64,000 nt of DNA from Eledone cirrhosa (lineage: Eukaryota): NCBI GenBank assembly GCA_964016885.1, contig OZ024743.1:330646001-330710000 (forward strand), read 5' to 3'. The position numbers were made by a program, and so were the translations under genes. The notes beneath the pieces were generated by a model. That model had not been told where the DNA came from. It ran no database searches and saw only the letters and a list, made by a program, of their open reading frames with translations. Below, in pieces: positions 5,311 to 64,000 of this stretch. The number at the start of each line of letters is the position of its first letter. The first letter of the stretch is position 1.

Positions 5311-5553
5311 GGAAAAGTTTCAGGACCCCGACGGCAGAGCTCAAGCCGTTTCGACGGCTGTTTCGTTTCTGGACTAACTTAGATTTTTAGCGTCGTAATA
5401 AAAGGCCGAACTTTTCAAGGGGTAATTCCATATATGGGCATGCGATAATGATTCATTTCTGAAGGTTGTAGTTGTCAAAAGGATTGGTCAAAGTTTCTTG
5501 GAAACACAGTTAAATCTTCCATGGCGGTGGGTAGGGAGTGGGGGTGGCTGAAC
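5311..5553 (-). mobile_element. PLE terminal-repeat fragment with degenerate HHR (family A)
   Basis: Minus strand reads acccc TTGAAAA...gccgtc GAAA cggcttgagctctgccg TC ggggt. Flanked by (TA)n. Confidence 0.6.
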
Positions 5554-6013
5554 ATATATATATATATATATATATACAATATATATATATATATATATAT
5601 GTGTGTGTATATATATATATATATATGTGTGTGTGTGTGTGTGTGTGTGTGTGTGTGTGTGTGTGTGTGTGTGTGTGTGTGTGTGTGTGTGTGTGTGTGT
5701 GTGTGTGTGTCTGTGTGTATGTATATATATATTAAGTGTATTGAGTTCAAAACTCAAGCATTCCTTTACAATAAAATAGCTCAAAGAAAAAAAAGATATA
5801 TTTCTGAGCCGTGTAATACAAGTAAATATAAATTAATATATATGATGAAACACAAATACCAACATATCTGTGCTTATATTCTACAATATAAACACAGGTA
5901 TGTTGGTATTTGTGTTTCATCATATATATTAATTTATATTTACTTGTATGTATATATATATATATATATATATATACATATACATATACATATACATATA
6001 CATATACATATAT

Positions 6014-6362
6014 CCAGGGAGTGTAACGCGAAATTACTGTAGGTTCGCCCAGGTGATCACTCGATGTTTAGGTTCACATCAGTGGTGAGGTGTAGAGCTA
6101 GACAGAGTGTAATATAATAATACAAGGACGATTTGTTAAGCCTTCATTACGTTTATAGGTTGGTGACGCGCGTTTCGCTACTGATCAGTTCAAGGCTCGA
6201 TCTGTATCGATCCGGCCCGACTCTGGAATCATCCCGGCGAGCTTCTAATTCCAGAGTGGAAACGGATCGATACATATCGAACCTCGAGTTGATCAGTAGT
6301 GAAACGCGCGTCACTAACCATTAAACATAGTAAAGGAGTAACCATTCGTCCTTGTATCATTA
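6014..6362. mobile_element. fold-back PLE-derived insert with HHR 3' half
   Basis: Diverged inverted arms ~6118-6229 and 6248-6360, GAAA cgcgcg TC at 6301-6312, unique tail on the left, TA flanks. Confidence 0.65.
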
Positions 6363-6422
6363 TATATATATATATATATATATATATATATATATATATA
6401 TATATATATATATATATATATA

Positions 6423-6798
6423 TCACAGAAAAAAGAGAATCAGTGTTGCGACGAATGGAATTTATTGTTTCTCTTGCGACCAGCTCGAGGCACGATCGAT
6501 GTGATGATCGAACCTGACAATGAAAATCATAAGGTCCTCAGATACGTCTTGATTCTACGAAGCAGATTTTCCTAGGAAGATGTATCTGAGGACCTTGCGA
6601 TTTTCAGAGTCAGGTTCGATCATCACATCGTTCGTGCCTCGAGCTAGTCGCCAGAGAAACAATTGTAATATGTCCAATAAATTCCATTCGTCGCAACTCG
6701 GATTGTCTTTTTTCTGTGATATCATATTCTGCTCTATGAGAGCATCGAGTGCTCATACGGCCTACCGCATACGGACGCTTTAAGCATCCAACACCAAT
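6423..6798. mobile_element. fold-back PLE-derived insert with tail
   Basis: Inverted arms ~6423-6550 and 6577-6720, GAAA caattg TA then AATAAA, tail 6721-6798. Confidence 0.65.
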
Positions 6799-6836
6799 TA
6801 TATATATATATATATATGAAAAATATGAAAATATGG

Positions 6837-7280
6837 CGTGCTGCGTGGTTGCAAATGGGTTACATATGAATAAAATTAGTTCTTCATCAGTGATCTTCCA
6901 GCCTTCATTGGTATTTCATCGCTTTAAAGACCATATACCTCTGGTTGGTGCGAGCAACGGCTAAAGAAAGTCGTTGGGACACGTAAATAGGGGGAACGAG
7001 TGAGACAGTAAACAAACAAAGATGGTAATGCAACGAAAAGTGAGGAAGGAGTCAGGTCCCTGAAATCGATGAACATAAGTTCTGTGAAATCGTAGACGAG
7101 AGAGAATAAAGACCATCCGACCTGGTCGAAGTGTGAGTGAGGAAAGAATCTCGCACAGGTCAAACGGGAGGAAGTAGGTGAGGGAGTAGCAGAGAGAGGG
7201 TGAGTGAAAGTATGAGGAAGAGGCTAACAGAGAGAGTGACTGGTAGAGGGGGTAAAAGGAAGTGAGAGATACAGATATAA
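6837..7280. repeat. interspersed repeat homologous to 34119-34770
   Basis: Shares ttcatcagtgatcttcca...aaagaccatatacc...gtcgttgggacacgtaaata and the downstream purine-rich block. Confidence 0.8.
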
Positions 7281-60650: not shown

Positions 60651-60780
60651 AAATATATATATATATATATGGATAATACTGTAAATAAAACCCCTTTTTG
60701 TACCGTTGACCATGTTATTCTTCATTCTTTCAATATATATATATATATAGAAGTGGTTACACAACAGTTAGTTCACTATA

Positions 60781-60820
60781 CCGAGAACAATTATTTCACC
60801 TTCGCGGATCTTCAGCTCGG
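60781..60820 (-). ncRNA. minimal HHR in the 3' pLTR
   Basis: ccgag CTGAAGA tccgcgaaggt GAAA taattg TT ctcgg. Confidence 0.75.
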
Positions 60821-61003
60821 GATGTATATGGTTATAGGAACAGGAAGTACAACCGTACGAACGCGCATGCGCAGAAACTCGCTCACTTCCACAGGCAATA
60901 GTAGACTGCGTGCGGGGGGTGTAAGGAAGATAACTGCGAAAGTCCGGAAAGTTTTTTGGTTGAAAATAAAATAAAAAAATTTAAAAATAAAATTACAAAG
61001 AAT

Positions 61004-63098
61004 CAGTCCGGAGCCTTGTAGTTATGTAATAGATGTTTGGTGACGTGTGGACAACGTGTGAAAAATTCACTTCTCGTGTTTAGGCAATCACTATTGCGTA
61101 ATCTCTTTAGGATAGTTATTCGTTAGTCAACATATAAGCCACACGTCGGATTTCCCCTTGCGTATGGCTTGGACTTAGTGATGGCTTTCCATTGAATGGA
61201 GTACCCTATACTTGAGTCCTTGAGGGACCATACGTGGCTCGCGAGTTTCGTGGATGAACGTCTGTCCGGGTATCTGAAGGTAGACTGGTGGTTCAGGAAA
61301 CGCTCCTTGAATCGGCCCTCCGCCATGCCCACATAGGATTTGACCTCCTGTGGTTCGTTTGGTCCGTTGGAAGTGACCACAGCTTCATAGATTACAGCTG
61401 TTGCATTGTTGTTGAAGAGGGCAAGCGTCAGGCTTACGGCAAGATCACCCTGGTGGGGTGTTGCTCCTAGGGCTGCTGGTGATGTGGCCTTCATGTTCTT
61501 AGCGCAGGTGTATCCTAGTTTAACTTTGTGTCGGTTAAAGATGGAGCGGTATTTATGACCTATGGGGAAGTGTCTATCTAAGAGGGCTAGAAATGTTTTT
61601 CCTACATTGGTTTTAACGTTGAGTAAGAAGGGAGGAGAGAACCAGATAGTTTATCTATTGATGCGCTTACATTTTTTAATGGTGTTGTTGCTAGTGGGAG
61701 AGTAAGTGATAGGTTATGAGAAGCCGCTGTTAGCCAACTCCGTGTTATAGTAGGGTACCGCCCTGTCAAAGATAACCTTATTAGAGGAGAGGTTTGAGAT
61801 TCTAGTACTGATATTTTTAACGAAGTTTCTAAAAACAGTGGGAGGGTGGCATGAGTCCTTGTGAATATAATTAAGTTTATCGTTTACCTTATGGAAGGGT
61901 CTGTGGGTGTGTGTGCGAAGGTCTAAACTAATGTCTAAGAAATCCACGCTAGAGAGGTTGGTGGATACTGTTATCCTAAGGCCTAACTCATTGAAGGTAG
62001 AAGCTAAGTCTTTTTTAAACCGGTCGAGGGCGTGACCACTTTTATGGCTCGATAAAGTCAGTCCATCGTCACGGTATATTCCCGTGTGGAAGTCCGGGAA
62101 TCTAATACGTAATATGTCTAAGATAAAAAGGCCAACCAAGTCACATACGTCAGCACTGTCAAACGATCCCATGGAGACGTCGAACAGGTCTGAAGATGTA
62201 GACTTCTTTGCCCAGGCTACTCCGTCGTTGAAGAGGAGGGTTTTCCGGCAGTGAGCGATGATTTCCCTGTCTAAACCATCGACGGTGGTATAAGTGGTAG
62301 CGAAGTCCAACGCTTTGTTTAACAGGGTCTCTGAGATCGACGGGTAAAAATCTACAATGTCAAACTGTGTAAACTTCGCTTTTTTGGATTTTAAGGAGTT
62401 AAACCACTTAATTACGGAGTCGCTGTTCTCCCACTGGGGCAGGTTGGACTTGGTCCTAATAGCCTTAACTATGTTTCTATGTATGGCCTTACTGACTAGT
62501 CCCATATCTGTGCGTGCCGTGTTTATTAGTCTGCATGTGGGGTTAGAAGTAAAGTCAACCTTGTGATCTTTCAGGGTGAGGAATGCCTCTCGCTTAGCTA
62601 GAGATTGTAGCTTCTTATCTACCTTAAGGTCGGTGGCGAGTTCCTTGGCTTCTGTATTAATGTCGTGGTAGGCCATAGGGTAGCTTTCTTATATTTAGAA
62701 GTAATAGCGTTATGGGCCAGGTGGCAGAAAGTGGTGTTGTCGACTTCGTAAATATTGTTAGTTTTGTCGGAAAGGACGAAGGTGTTATTAGAAGACCTAA
62801 ATTTCTTAATATCGTTTCTGAGTTTCGTTTGAAAGGTGTTAGTGTGTTTGCGAAAGGAAATGTTAGCGACTAAGTCAAGAAGGTCCGTCTCGAAAGGAGC
62901 AAGTTCGGTTACCTTAGGAGGATAGGCTCTCGATTTCAGGTTGAAGGTGTTGTTTGTGCCTGTAATTTTGCCGTCGAAAGCGAGGGCTCGCCATATTAAG
63001 CGTCTGACGACATCTTCCGCTTTTTGTAGGAGGAGCTTTTGGTAAACATGGTTGGAGGGAGTTGGAATGTTCTTCAGGGAGTAATTCAGTTCGTATAA
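61004..63098 (-). pseudogene. PLE polyprotein: reverse transcriptase + GIY-YIG endonuclease, disrupted
   Basis: YSLKNIPTPS, SDKT, FDIVDFYPSI, MGSFDSADVCDLVG, YRDDGL, VDFLDISL, IWFSPPF, VIY...YVG, RFKERF. Frameshift ~62680, TAA at 61716-14 and 61653-51, further lesions in the linker and endonuclease. Confidence 0.93.
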
Positions 63099-63779
63099 AT
63101 GAAGGCCCACAACATCAGCAGCCCTAGTAGCAACACCCCACCAGGGTGCTCTTGCCGTAAGCCTGAAGCTTTTCCCCTTCAACAACAATGCAGCAGACCA
63201 GCTGTAATCTATGAAGTTGTGGTCACTTCCAACCGACCAAACGAACCACAGGAGGTCAAATCCTATGTGGGCATGGCGGAGCAGCCGATTCAAGGAGCGT
63301 TTCCTAAACCAGCAGTCTACCTTCAGATACCCGGACAGACGTTCATTCACGAAACACGCGAGCCACATATGGTCCCTCAAGGACTCAAGTATAGGGTACT
63401 CCATTCAATGGAAAGCCATCACTAAGTCCAAGCCATACGCAAGGGGAAATCCGACGTGTGGCTTATGTATTGACGAACGAATAACTATCCTAAAGAGATT
63501 ACGCAATAGTGATTGCCTAAACAAGAGAAGTGAATTTTTCAGACGTTGTCCACACGTCACCAAACATCTATCACATAACTACAAGGCTCCGGACTGGTTC
63601 TTTGTAATTTTATTTTTTAATTTTTTATTTTATTTTCAATCAAATAACTTTCCGGACTTTCGCAGTTATCTCCCTTACACTCCCCGCACGTAGTCTACTA
63701 TTGCCTGTGTGAAGTGAGCGAGTTTCTGCGCATGCGCGTTCGTACAGTTGTCCTTCCTGTTCCTATAACCATATACATC

Positions 63780-63819
63780 CCGAGCTGAAGATCCGCGAAG
63801 GTGAAACAATTGTTCTCGG
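63780..63819 (+). ncRNA. minimal HHR in the inverted pLTR
   Basis: ccgag CTGAAGA tccgcgaaggt GAAA caattg TT ctcgg. Confidence 0.8.
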
Positions 63820-64000
63820 TATAGTGAACTAACTGTTGTGTAACCACTTCTATCTAACTCGTCCCTTGGACTGAGTGCTCTACCACTACGGATATTACCT
63901 TCCAGTGTTCCACCACTATATATATATATATATATATATATATATATATATATATATATATATATATATATATATATATATATATTTAAGTCTGTCTCAA

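Follow-up and report, generated by a model that had tools for sequence, protein, structure and literature searches.

Palindromic mini-elements in TA repeats of Eledone cirrhosa are truncated insertions of Penelope-like retrotransposons and non-coding passengers

The short fold-back inserts in (TA)n tracts of Eledone cirrhosa are real truncated insertions of Penelope-like retrotransposons (PLEs) and of non-coding passengers. Many unrelated families among them share a bulged, covarying stem-loop in their tails (RYUC-stem-UN-GARY). An earlier note on the 64,000-nt stretch of DNA analysed here (the window) missed this stem-loop, and we did not find the covarying, paired structure described in the available sections of the literature on Hydra-clade elements. 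An inverted 5' copy, a tail, a hammerhead and (TA)n preference have been published for Hydra-clade elements, an octopus family included (PMC8557442). Since fold-back architecture, hammerheads and (TA)n targeting were already known, the earlier note overstated the surprise.

Fold-backs in the window and in the genome

Inverted repeats were called by masked self-BLAST; TA runs otherwise dominate repeat finding. In the low-complexity-masked window, all 12 inserts named by the earlier note had inverted arms (80–100% identical) and a one-sided tail, with TA at one or both ends; in every case at least one end had a TA run no more than 15 nt away. The proposed plan of two arms, one-sided tail and TA thus holds for every insert. 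That the inserts are confined to (TA)n is true of most but not all: the left side of 57290 lacks a TA run, and 33082, outside the original list, has one on neither side. Nor are they all unrelated, as they fall into nine families, with 9192, 20235, 21416 and 51993 all belonging to family A. The features of the window are:

5311..5553, minus: single family A arm; whole hammerhead with U3-A8 core variant and 59-nt stem II region
5732..5950, minus: extra fold-back outside the original list; tail stem-loop 5779-5809
6014..6360, minus: family B fold-back; arms 6120-6215/6262-6357 (82%), tail 6014-6119, stem-loop 6059-6108, 3' half hammerheads
6423..6798, plus: family C fold-back; arms ~80%, whole hammerhead from 6586, tail 6723-6798, stem-loop 6726-6750
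9192..9384, plus: family A fold-back; arms 9192-9306, tail 9307-9384, stem-loop 9312-9335, 3' half hammerheads
9410..9632, minus: family D fold-back (9495); low copy number, candidate member only
9700..10215, plus: 5'-truncated Hydra-type GIY-YIG endonuclease fragment adjoining a TA tract; 72% DNA identity to the family F element
11313..12282, plus: family K non-coding tandem; unit ~525 bp, one hammerhead per unit (11513, 12038), short inverted arm
11651-11674, 11767-11788 (second type) and 12173-12196, plus: family K stem-loops inside 11313..12282
16690..17213, plus: family E fold-back (16686); whole hammerhead from 16962, tail 17067-17213, stem-loop 17075-17134
19597..20108, plus: family F fold-back (19594); arms 98.5%, whole hammerheads in both arms (19916 plus, 19690 minus), stem-loop 20021-20060
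20235..20381, plus: minimal family A fold-back; stem-loop 20298-20321
21416..21580, plus: family A fold-back; stem-loop 21503-21526
39109..39670, plus: family H fold-back (39107); hammerhead from 39337, stem-loop 39588-39612
43184..43800, minus: family I fold-back; arms 43239-43436/43584-43781 (100%), left tail, hammerhead 43583 plus, stem-loop absent
51995..52180, minus: family A fold-back (51993); tail on left, stem-loop 52043-52066
57290..57660, minus: old family J fold-back; decayed hammerheads (57422 minus, 57617 plus), decayed stem-loop ~57325-57344
60749..63916, no single strand: Hydra-type PLE; arms 60749-61494/63099-63853 (94%), tail 63854-63916

As a genome sample we used 99 evenly spaced 10-kb stretches (989,600 bases), with 200 placements as the null. 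TA enrichment was confirmed, as 109 of 282 inverted repeats abutted a TA tract (null mean 7.3, maximum 15), and 73 of the 282 showed the complete plan (null 1.9, maximum 6). By the same rule the window contains 14 genuine full-plan fold-backs (17 pairs minus three joining separate copies), about three times the density of the sample. Extrapolation from 0.99 Mb to the 3.0-Gb genome suggests, to an order of magnitude only, roughly 200,000 fold-backs and roughly 400,000 hammerhead motifs.

The suspected link to microsatellite expansion was not borne out: only 49 of the 501 TA tracts of at least 30 nt flanked such elements, and a paralogous site lacking the 43184 insertion (48019/48020) revealed that the TA array is older than that insertion. 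TA tracts beside elements were only slightly longer, with a median of 20 nt against 16 nt for the others. At the 43184 site, the one that allowed a test, creation of microsatellites by the elements was rejected.

Short, high-copy units with inverted ends and TA flanks might also be DNA transposons of the MITE or foldback kind, multiplied as invariant palindromes. This explanation is largely refuted and very improbable: instead of fixed centres and symmetric ends we found centres that vary per copy and a one-sided tail, and the arms extend into RT/GIY-YIG ORFs or hammerhead tandems, with only 9495 unassigned. Assembly or chimera artefacts can be practically discounted. The whole 16690-17213 palindrome was spanned by no contig or read in four independent short-read runs; against an artefact, independent runs contained plenty of family E, whose arms were joined there at other centres, most copies have arms 80–98% alike, ends are family-specific and motif-defined, and an empty paralogous site exists. 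RNA runs covered a share of at most 0.03 of the family E stretch searched.

Coding relatives, hammerheads and non-coding units

The 3.1-kb element at 60749..63916 follows the fold-back plan with its RT ORF as spacer, as the earlier note had proposed. Its long, tail-less copy runs on the minus strand from 63098 to 60749 and includes the broken RT-endonuclease ORF, while the short plus-strand copy (63099-63916) bears the tail; hammerheads lie at 60815 (minus) and 63785 (plus) and a stem-loop at 63857-63876. Window ORF pieces and their homologues indicate a short element with a single RT ORF bearing a C-terminal GIY-YIG endonuclease. No window ORF piece matched Pfam, and 549 longer homologues were found at E<=1e-20 (570–814 aa among the matches listed). 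The window element carries SDKT, that is, DKT in place of DKG, together with LIWR; SDKT recurs in locus L314, and L315 carries SDKM and MRWR. The CxCx5C linker reads CNCRNPESC in L316 and CNCPDRSTC in L314, its final C being decayed in the window copy, where CGLC and CPH represent the CxxC and CxH motifs and CCHH is absent. Two further Hydra-clade traits, a pLTR hammerhead and (TA)n as target, are present as well. On these motifs and by-eye likeness to Hydra-1_Obim we assign the element putatively to the Hydra clade (Craig et al. 2021, PMC8557442), which shares the short RT and GIY-YIG ORF, DKT, CxCx5C and lack of CCHH; its members likewise have a type I hammerhead, insert into (TA)n and show the inverted 5'-truncated copy and the one-sided tail. 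In contrast to that description, tails here measure 55–150 nt (versus 30–40), and there are dozens of families, several non-coding passengers and the estimated 200,000 fold-backs.

Longer copies linked the arms to RT/GIY-YIG ORFs in five of the nine families, four leading to a Hydra-clade RT/endonuclease and one to a Neptune-like ORF; two further families are non-coding tandem units, and two (D and J) are unlinked. The proposal that the inserts are truncation products or non-autonomous derivatives of several PLE families targeting (TA)n is thereby upheld. A family B copy in L091 has a Hydra-type endonuclease as spacer, and family C links were seen in L315 and L327. For family A, we dropped the idea of a short element with a defined 5' end, as longer copies extend into RT and endonuclease; in the 60 loci examined of its most abundant subfamily, the 9192 type, no linked ORF was found. 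Family I differs from the Hydra type: the linked ORF end has a Cx2C linker and a CCHH-like endonuclease and may be read as Neptune-like, judging from one locus (L210). A genome search with the 43184 spacer returned zero matches, probably because its words are too common, and relatives were drawn from the genome sample and flanks of other loci. Neither an ORF nor a hammerhead-tandem link was found in the fetched loci of family D, which has no hammerhead or stem-loop, or of family J, which has both, its stem-loop being intact in relatives.

A relaxed type I descriptor identified 17 hammerheads in the window (0–3 in each of 10 shuffles), about one per 4 kb and in line with the density claimed before. 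These predicted ribozymes match the type I core CUGANGA/GAAA/UH with three stems far above the shuffles. None reached the Rfam gathering score, nor did any other family, and the Rfam matches listed by E-value were all simple-repeat and hairpin noise. Arm-borne hammerheads in the window point outward. They are whole in five of the 12 inserts (6423, 16686, 19594, 39107, 43184), reduced to the 3' half in four (6014, 9192, 21416, 51993) and decayed but recognisable in 57290; 20235 keeps a cleavage-site remnant and 9495 has none. As a raw count, 5 of the 17 are followed by AATAAA within 43 nt, which the earlier note described as often.

Minimal PLE hammerheads are type I with a short palindromic stem III and lie dispersed singly or as opposite-strand pairs 100–700 bp apart; a U3-A8 core variant occurs in Schistosoma Cercyon elements (Cervera and De la Pena 2014, PMC4209133). 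The hammerheads here share these traits, UUGANAA being the reading of the U3-A8-type core in 23 of 30 sightings, but several families have stem II regions of 50–63 nt and family A a longer stem III. No support emerged for hammerhead-cleaved RNA as the usual template: of 91 aligned family A arms, 0 began within 4 nt of the cleavage site. Two copies do end at that site. The hammerhead would be carried along, its cleavage probably being needless for insertion.

The source of family E is a 2.9-kb non-coding tandem unit; the family H fold-back too derives from such a unit. Family H (unit 506–541 bp, longest ORF 83 aa) and family K (about 530 bp, 93 aa; described from window and sample copies) gave zero PLE protein matches. 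Both resemble animal non-LTR retrozymes, which are non-coding tandem units with one type I hammerhead each and pLTR-related (Li et al. 2026, 10.64898/2026.07.22.740005; Cervera and de la Pena 2020). Unlike retrozymes as described there, they bear the marks of Penelope insertion (inverted arm, tail, TA) together with both stem-loops, which suggests that the Hydra-clade enzyme mobilises them.

The tail stem-loop and its second copy

The stem-loop descriptor, written after the tails had been inspected, matched 15 of 38 family representatives (null 0.23, maximum 2) and 6 of 22 held-out representatives (null 0.14, maximum 3). It is strand-specific in this genome, with an antisense match in 0 of 60 representatives. 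Among Hydra-type elements of metagenome and MAG contigs, 15 of 23 distinct 3' ends carried it (null 1.7, maximum 7; antisense 6 of 23). It also goes unmentioned in the available sections of PMC8557442, yet is visible by eye in the Hydra-2_Amil, Hydra-2_Ajap and Hydra-1_Ajap consensus sequences.

Covariation was assessed in 32 families selected by sequence anchors only, pairing not being required. The first pair was A-U in 13 and G-C in 11 (p=0.0006), and inner pairs gave p=0.0002–0.0008. RNAalifold called zero pairs on a sequence-only MAFFT alignment of 30 instances, in which loop lengths varied and three rows were misaligned. Structure-guided scoring found 96.8% of cells paired and 19 double changes (0 of 500 shuffles), with instances selected for having the motif and pairs scoring only when the structure is named. 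When tails were folded singly, 6 of 12 formed the stem, at modest z-scores.

Of the 20 families that have run-on sequence, 11 show a second stem-loop at most 110 nt away (null 0.8, maximum 4), about two to three of these being weak matches. Both ends of the insertions lie just before a stem-loop: in 21 of 23 families the first copy lies 6–14 nt past the arm end, and the tail stops 5–9 nt short of the second in all five families of this genome with tandem run-on and 2–4 nt short of it in four of five metagenome cases. TA/AT follows the arm end in 19 of 23 stem-loop families (background 0.19) and also in 15 of 24 motif-less families. This arrangement suggests that the two stem-loops probably determine both priming sites in twin target-primed reverse transcription, a role predicted from sequence.

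The stem-loops might instead serve RNP packaging, RNA stability, control of ORF translation or holding the hammerhead inactive, with twin priming correct and their proximity to the ends secondary. The pair sits in the leader just before the start codon (in Hydra-1_Ajap judged by eye), and families I and D build the fold-back plan without it. However, the end-to-stem-loop distance is tight across unrelated families, and the non-coding families E, H and K retain both copies with no ORF to regulate. We regard this alternative as distinctly improbable.

A proposed pair of programmed starts in (TA)n

In two sets of 30 family A loci each, the outer arm start and the tail end were constant and the centre differed copy by copy. 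Because outer ends are fixed in a family while every copy has its own centre, the palindrome is made at each insertion. We consider it fairly probable that every mini palindrome records its own insertion, strongly 5'-truncated, of a PLE (mostly of the Hydra clade) or non-coding passenger, and that it arose through twin target-primed reverse transcription into (TA)n, the two stem-loops being predicted to set the starts. A dimeric RT-endonuclease would nick both strands of the TA tract, and each 3' end would prime at UA a few nt upstream of one stem-loop. The arm end would be the start of one cDNA and the tail end that of the other, the tail representing the spacing between the stem-loops. Both would copy one source RNA, or RNAs of one locus, usually stop early, and be joined head-to-head by microhomology or short templated filler.

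Alternatively, a single cDNA, or an antisense template as proposed by Arkhipova et al. 2013, could fold and copy itself, the endonuclease trimming one end to leave the tail and the stem-loops serving at the DNA level to signal cleavage or resolution. A self-priming mechanism was suggested for Penelope (PMC3846280), and endonuclease recognition of plasmid DNA needed the tail (as cited in PMC11167929). The two arms agree at subfamily-diagnostic sites (34 of 35 and 14 of 14 cases), and centres often lie at short palindromes or duplicate a novel junction; such same-source arms and some perfectly palindromic novel junctions (L149) fit self-copying too. The stem-loop has few G-U pairs and so fails to tell an RNA from a DNA role. 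A tail-primed version, however, cannot add template to the tail-less arm, yet among 57 unique family A fold-backs this arm was longer in 9 of the 37 unequal copies (tail arm longer in 28, equal 17, both very short 3), counts that the queries used skew toward long tail arms. The ORF lies in the tail-less copy in five of seven long fold-backs, 24 of 42 junctions contain filler (14 overlap, 4 blunt), and the stem-loop is strand-specific. Self-copying is therefore rather unlikely.

Twin priming is known from LINE-1, where two primings give an inversion, and in LINE/SINE pairs a 3' RNA stem-loop is common to the autonomous element and its passengers. Here, by contrast, both cDNAs would copy one region and so produce a duplication, and two structures, homologous to each other, are present. 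The enzyme of Anolis Poseidon cuts and extends both strands, its two adjacent internal starts delimiting the tail; the hammerhead is dispensable in vitro and a dimer is predicted (Frangieh et al. 2024, PMC11167929). Poseidon belongs to a different clade, with a single AC-rich stem-loop containing its starts, which lack homology to the target. Here, each start would lie upstream of its own conserved stem-loop, mostly at UA. The priming of Poseidon in vitro without target homology counts against the reading proposed here (PMC11167929).

Taking these strands together, we lean slightly towards the paired stem-loop as a clade-wide RNA signal that would recruit a dimeric Hydra-clade RT-endonuclease, fix both priming sites and license non-coding, retrozyme-like passengers, with conservation spanning elements of this genome, coral, sea cucumber and marine metagenomes. 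Tail and inverted 5' copy would then be the spacing and the product of two programmed starts.

The origin of PLE tails and inverted repeats and the enzyme's RNA recognition have been named as open questions (PMC11167929). A short stem-loop that covaries, occurs twice and keeps a nearly constant distance to both ends makes these questions directly testable by mutagenesis, and families H and K provide structural evidence that retrozyme-like non-coding tandems are mobilised by a Penelope enzyme. Repeat annotation could mistake the fold-backs for MITEs or SINEs; at the extrapolated number they would supply much hairpin DNA and, where transcribed, much double-stranded RNA. If the joint reading is true, the stem-loop pair would provide a minimal RNA module with which insertion into (TA)n could be programmed.

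Fold-back elements and their families

The 12 short inserts named in the earlier note and the 3.1 kb Penelope-like element (PLE) at 60749-63916 were proposed to share a plan of inverted arms, and masked self-BLAST of the window found such arms in every one of them. Paired arms of the inserts are 80-100% identical, and each named insert has a TA run no more than 15 nt from one or both of its ends. Confinement to TA held for the named inserts, but one further palindrome is an exception:

33082-33247: palindrome, not among the named inserts; hammerhead-like motif at 33171, minus strand; no tail stem-loop; no TA tract within 389 nt

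For comparison we sampled the genome in 10 kb stretches at even spacing, 99 in all (989,600 bases; 100 requested, one nonexistent). The proposed TA enrichment beside inverted repeats was recovered, with 109 of 282 adjoining TA (null 7.3, maximum 15). Both arms, a tail and TA at both ends were present in 73 of the 282 (null 1.9, maximum 6), a count that includes a few nested duplicates or chance pairs. The full plan thus occurs about once per 13.6 kb in the sample, versus 14 genuine cases in the 64 kb window; TA tracts cover 5.1% of the sample and 17.8% of the window (genome 3.0 Gb). Genome size, TA richness and a resemblance, judged by eye, to Hydra-1_Obim point to a cephalopod as the likely host.

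In the 3.1 kb element, DKT and an RWK-type motif occur together with CxxC, CxH and a CxCx5C-type linker, and CCHH is absent, a combination given for the Hydra clade in PMC8557442. Hydra-clade PLEs, among them a listed Octopus bimaculoides family, are already known to prefer (TA)n targets and to carry a hammerhead, a tail and an inverted copy. By motif tests the window elements mostly belong to this clade, and they work like its members. The swarm is a large new instance of an already known kind of element.

The inserts had been considered mutually unrelated. This was not the case, since four of the 12 form a single family (A: 9192, 20235, 21416, 51993) and the inserts therefore represent nine families. 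Their suggested origin as truncated or non-autonomous PLE derivatives was supported for most families. In 6 of 30 family F (19594) loci the same strand encodes an endonuclease about 1.1 kb upstream, and fetched locus L316 has both reverse transcriptase (RT) and endonuclease. ORF links were also found for family A (nine of 30 loci fetched with the upstream part of this family, plus L314), C (6423; L315 and L327) and B (6014; L091 only), while for family I (43184) a single locus, L210, continues into the end of a Neptune-like ORF. The source of family E (16686) is a tandem unit of 2,905 bp whose copies are 95-99% identical; its longest ORF has 99 aa, and no match to a PLE protein was better than E 0.14. 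Families H (39107) and K (11313, absent from the earlier list) are non-coding tandems of 506-541 bp units with one hammerhead per unit, and on sequence grounds both fit the definition of non-LTR retrozymes (10.64898/2026.07.22.740005). Families D (9495) and J (57290) had neither ORF nor tandem-unit link among the fetched loci.

Several other repeats were observed. Fragments of a Hydra-type family at 12660-12975 and 14715-14860 include part of an ORF at 12783-12679, read from the minus strand, and two inverted arms (12880-12972 and 14719-14811) with 1.7 kb of degenerate TA between them; L046, L063 and L112 are endonuclease-bearing relatives. A relative of family K forms at least four tandem units in L059:5559-8043, each with a hammerhead, and closes with a tail and TA tract; its layout is that of a retrozyme-like array which ends in the manner of a PLE. 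Since L325:553-2574 holds an open 674 aa frame for a Poseidon-like RT and GIY-YIG endonuclease, the genome also houses other Penelope clades. A dispersed repeat of roughly 600 bp occurs in inverted orientation at 34806-35399 and 56165-57272; the two copies are 97-98% identical, and the second contains an internal tandem duplication. Another dispersed repeat, abundant and roughly 150-260 bp long (8330-8494, 13280-13447, 22241-22483, 32466-32811, 50115-50532, 52183-52444), is presumably SINE-like.

Hammerheads

A relaxed hammerhead descriptor matched 17 times in the window, against 0-3 in shuffles, and 163 times in the genome sample, against 26-31. That most arms hold a whole or half hammerhead was borne out by five whole copies and four 3' halves among the 12 inserts, whereas one copy is decayed, one a remnant and one insert has none. 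The U3-A8 core seen in 23 of 30 family A sightings (duplicates not removed) is a variant already known from Schistosoma (PMC4209133). Because none of 91 arms starts at the cleavage site, hammerhead cleavage is probably not part of insertion. Most family A arms (L001-L030, L130-L159) end 30-50 nt upstream of that site, where hammerhead stem II has its U-rich loop. This suggests that RT stalls there reproducibly, although divergence from the reference partly affects the measure. Apart from these, a lone arm of a family F relative (10900-11240) has at 11145 a whole hammerhead with AATAAA behind it; the arm ends at a TA tract and lacks an inverted partner. Isolated hammerhead-like motifs at 51233 (minus) and 55288 (plus), near TA tracts and likewise unpartnered, have low scores and may be chance.

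A paired stem-loop at the tail

The arm and tail plan of the earlier note holds, yet it overlooked a stem-loop shared by tails of unrelated families: RYUC, a stem and loop of free sequence, a 1-2 nt bulge beginning with U, then GARY. We clustered 331 plan elements into 60 families, 38 of them already seen when the descriptor was drawn up and 22 held out. The descriptor matched 15 of the 38 representatives (null 0.23) and 6 of the 22 held out (null 0.14), with no match on the antisense strand of the 60. When only the sequence anchors were used, 32 of 60 families qualified and the pairs covaried (first pair 13 A-U and 11 G-C, p=0.0006; inner pairs p=0.0002-0.0008). Among the 12 named inserts the stem-loop is intact in nine, decayed in 57290 and absent from 9495 and 43184. 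RNAalifold on a MAFFT alignment of the instances returned no pairs, the named structure scored well only on rows pre-selected for the motif, and minimum-energy folding recovered the stem in 6 of 12 tails.

The outside set comprised 93 Hydra-type loci from metagenome/MAG contigs (85 with an endonuclease end, 63 with a hammerhead behind the endonuclease, 47 with enough sequence), yielding 23 distinct ends. Fifteen of these have the stem-loop (null 1.7, maximum 7; antisense 6), and anchors-only covariation held there as well, with 27 of 30 non-independent instances at the first inner pair (p=0.0002). Contigs L481-L494, labelled bacterial MAGs or symbiont genomes, carry Hydra-type PLEs and are most likely animal host DNA contamination. 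In published consensus sequences, inspection by eye revealed a perfect stem-loop in the tails of Hydra-2_Amil and Hydra-2_Ajap, a partial one in Hydra-1_Crog and two in the leader of Hydra-1_Ajap; Hydra-1_Amil is ambiguous, and the consensus of Hydra-1_Obim appears to stop short of any tail.

Among the 20 outside families that have run-on sequence, 11 show a second stem-loop no more than 110 nt after the first (null 0.8; two to three are weak). In Eledone cirrhosa, families A, C, E, H and K have tandem run-ons in which it lies 5-9 nt past the tail end, and 89 family A copies share one tail-end offset, 6 nt before it. Outside tails end 2, 3, 4, 4 and 22 nt before it. No informative run-on was seen for F, I, M5825 or the 3.1 kb element, and the single one of B is ambiguous. 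Arms end 6-14 nt before the first stem-loop in 21 of 23 families, with TA/AT next in 19 of 23. The paired stem-loop was not found in Rfam, and we found no description of it in the literature searched, although older Penelope papers on the tail, supplements and subscription papers could have one.

Origin of the fold-backs

Outer ends are constant while centres differ between copies, and from this pattern each palindrome is made at insertion. A tandem duplication of about 5 kb (40211-45380/45381-49500), mostly degenerate TA array, is 98-99.7% identical in its unique parts. The second duplicate lacks the 43184 element: 605 bp (43173-43777) are missing at the paralogous site 48019/48020, so the element entered a pre-existing TA array. 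As the array is older than this insertion, the suggested link to microsatellite expansion is unsupported. An assembly artefact is disfavoured because arms diverge, ends are family-specific and an empty site exists. Family E is abundant in independent short-read runs; these contained no reads spanning its palindrome.

The best reading is that fold-backs arise by twin target-primed reverse transcription, with a separate start for each stem-loop. A dimer would bind the two stem-loops, priming would occur at UA, both cDNAs would share a common source RNA, and end joining would unite the copies. Twin priming is known for LINE-1. For a Poseidon element, cutting and extension of both strands, with two adjacent starts delimiting the tail and no need of the hammerhead, are described in PMC11167929. 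The main rival is snap-back self-priming, which has been proposed for Penelope (PMC3846280), here with the hairpins read as DNA. It explains the diagnostic letters common to both arms. However, it fails to account for long tail-less arms: the longer arm is the tail arm in 28 of 57 cases, the tail-less arm in nine, neither in 17 of equal length, and both are short in three (the sample is biased toward tail arms), and the ORF lies in the tail-less copy in five of seven long fold-backs. Arm-arm junctions carry overlap or filler. Through the stem-loop pair, how the Penelope tail originates can be tested directly.
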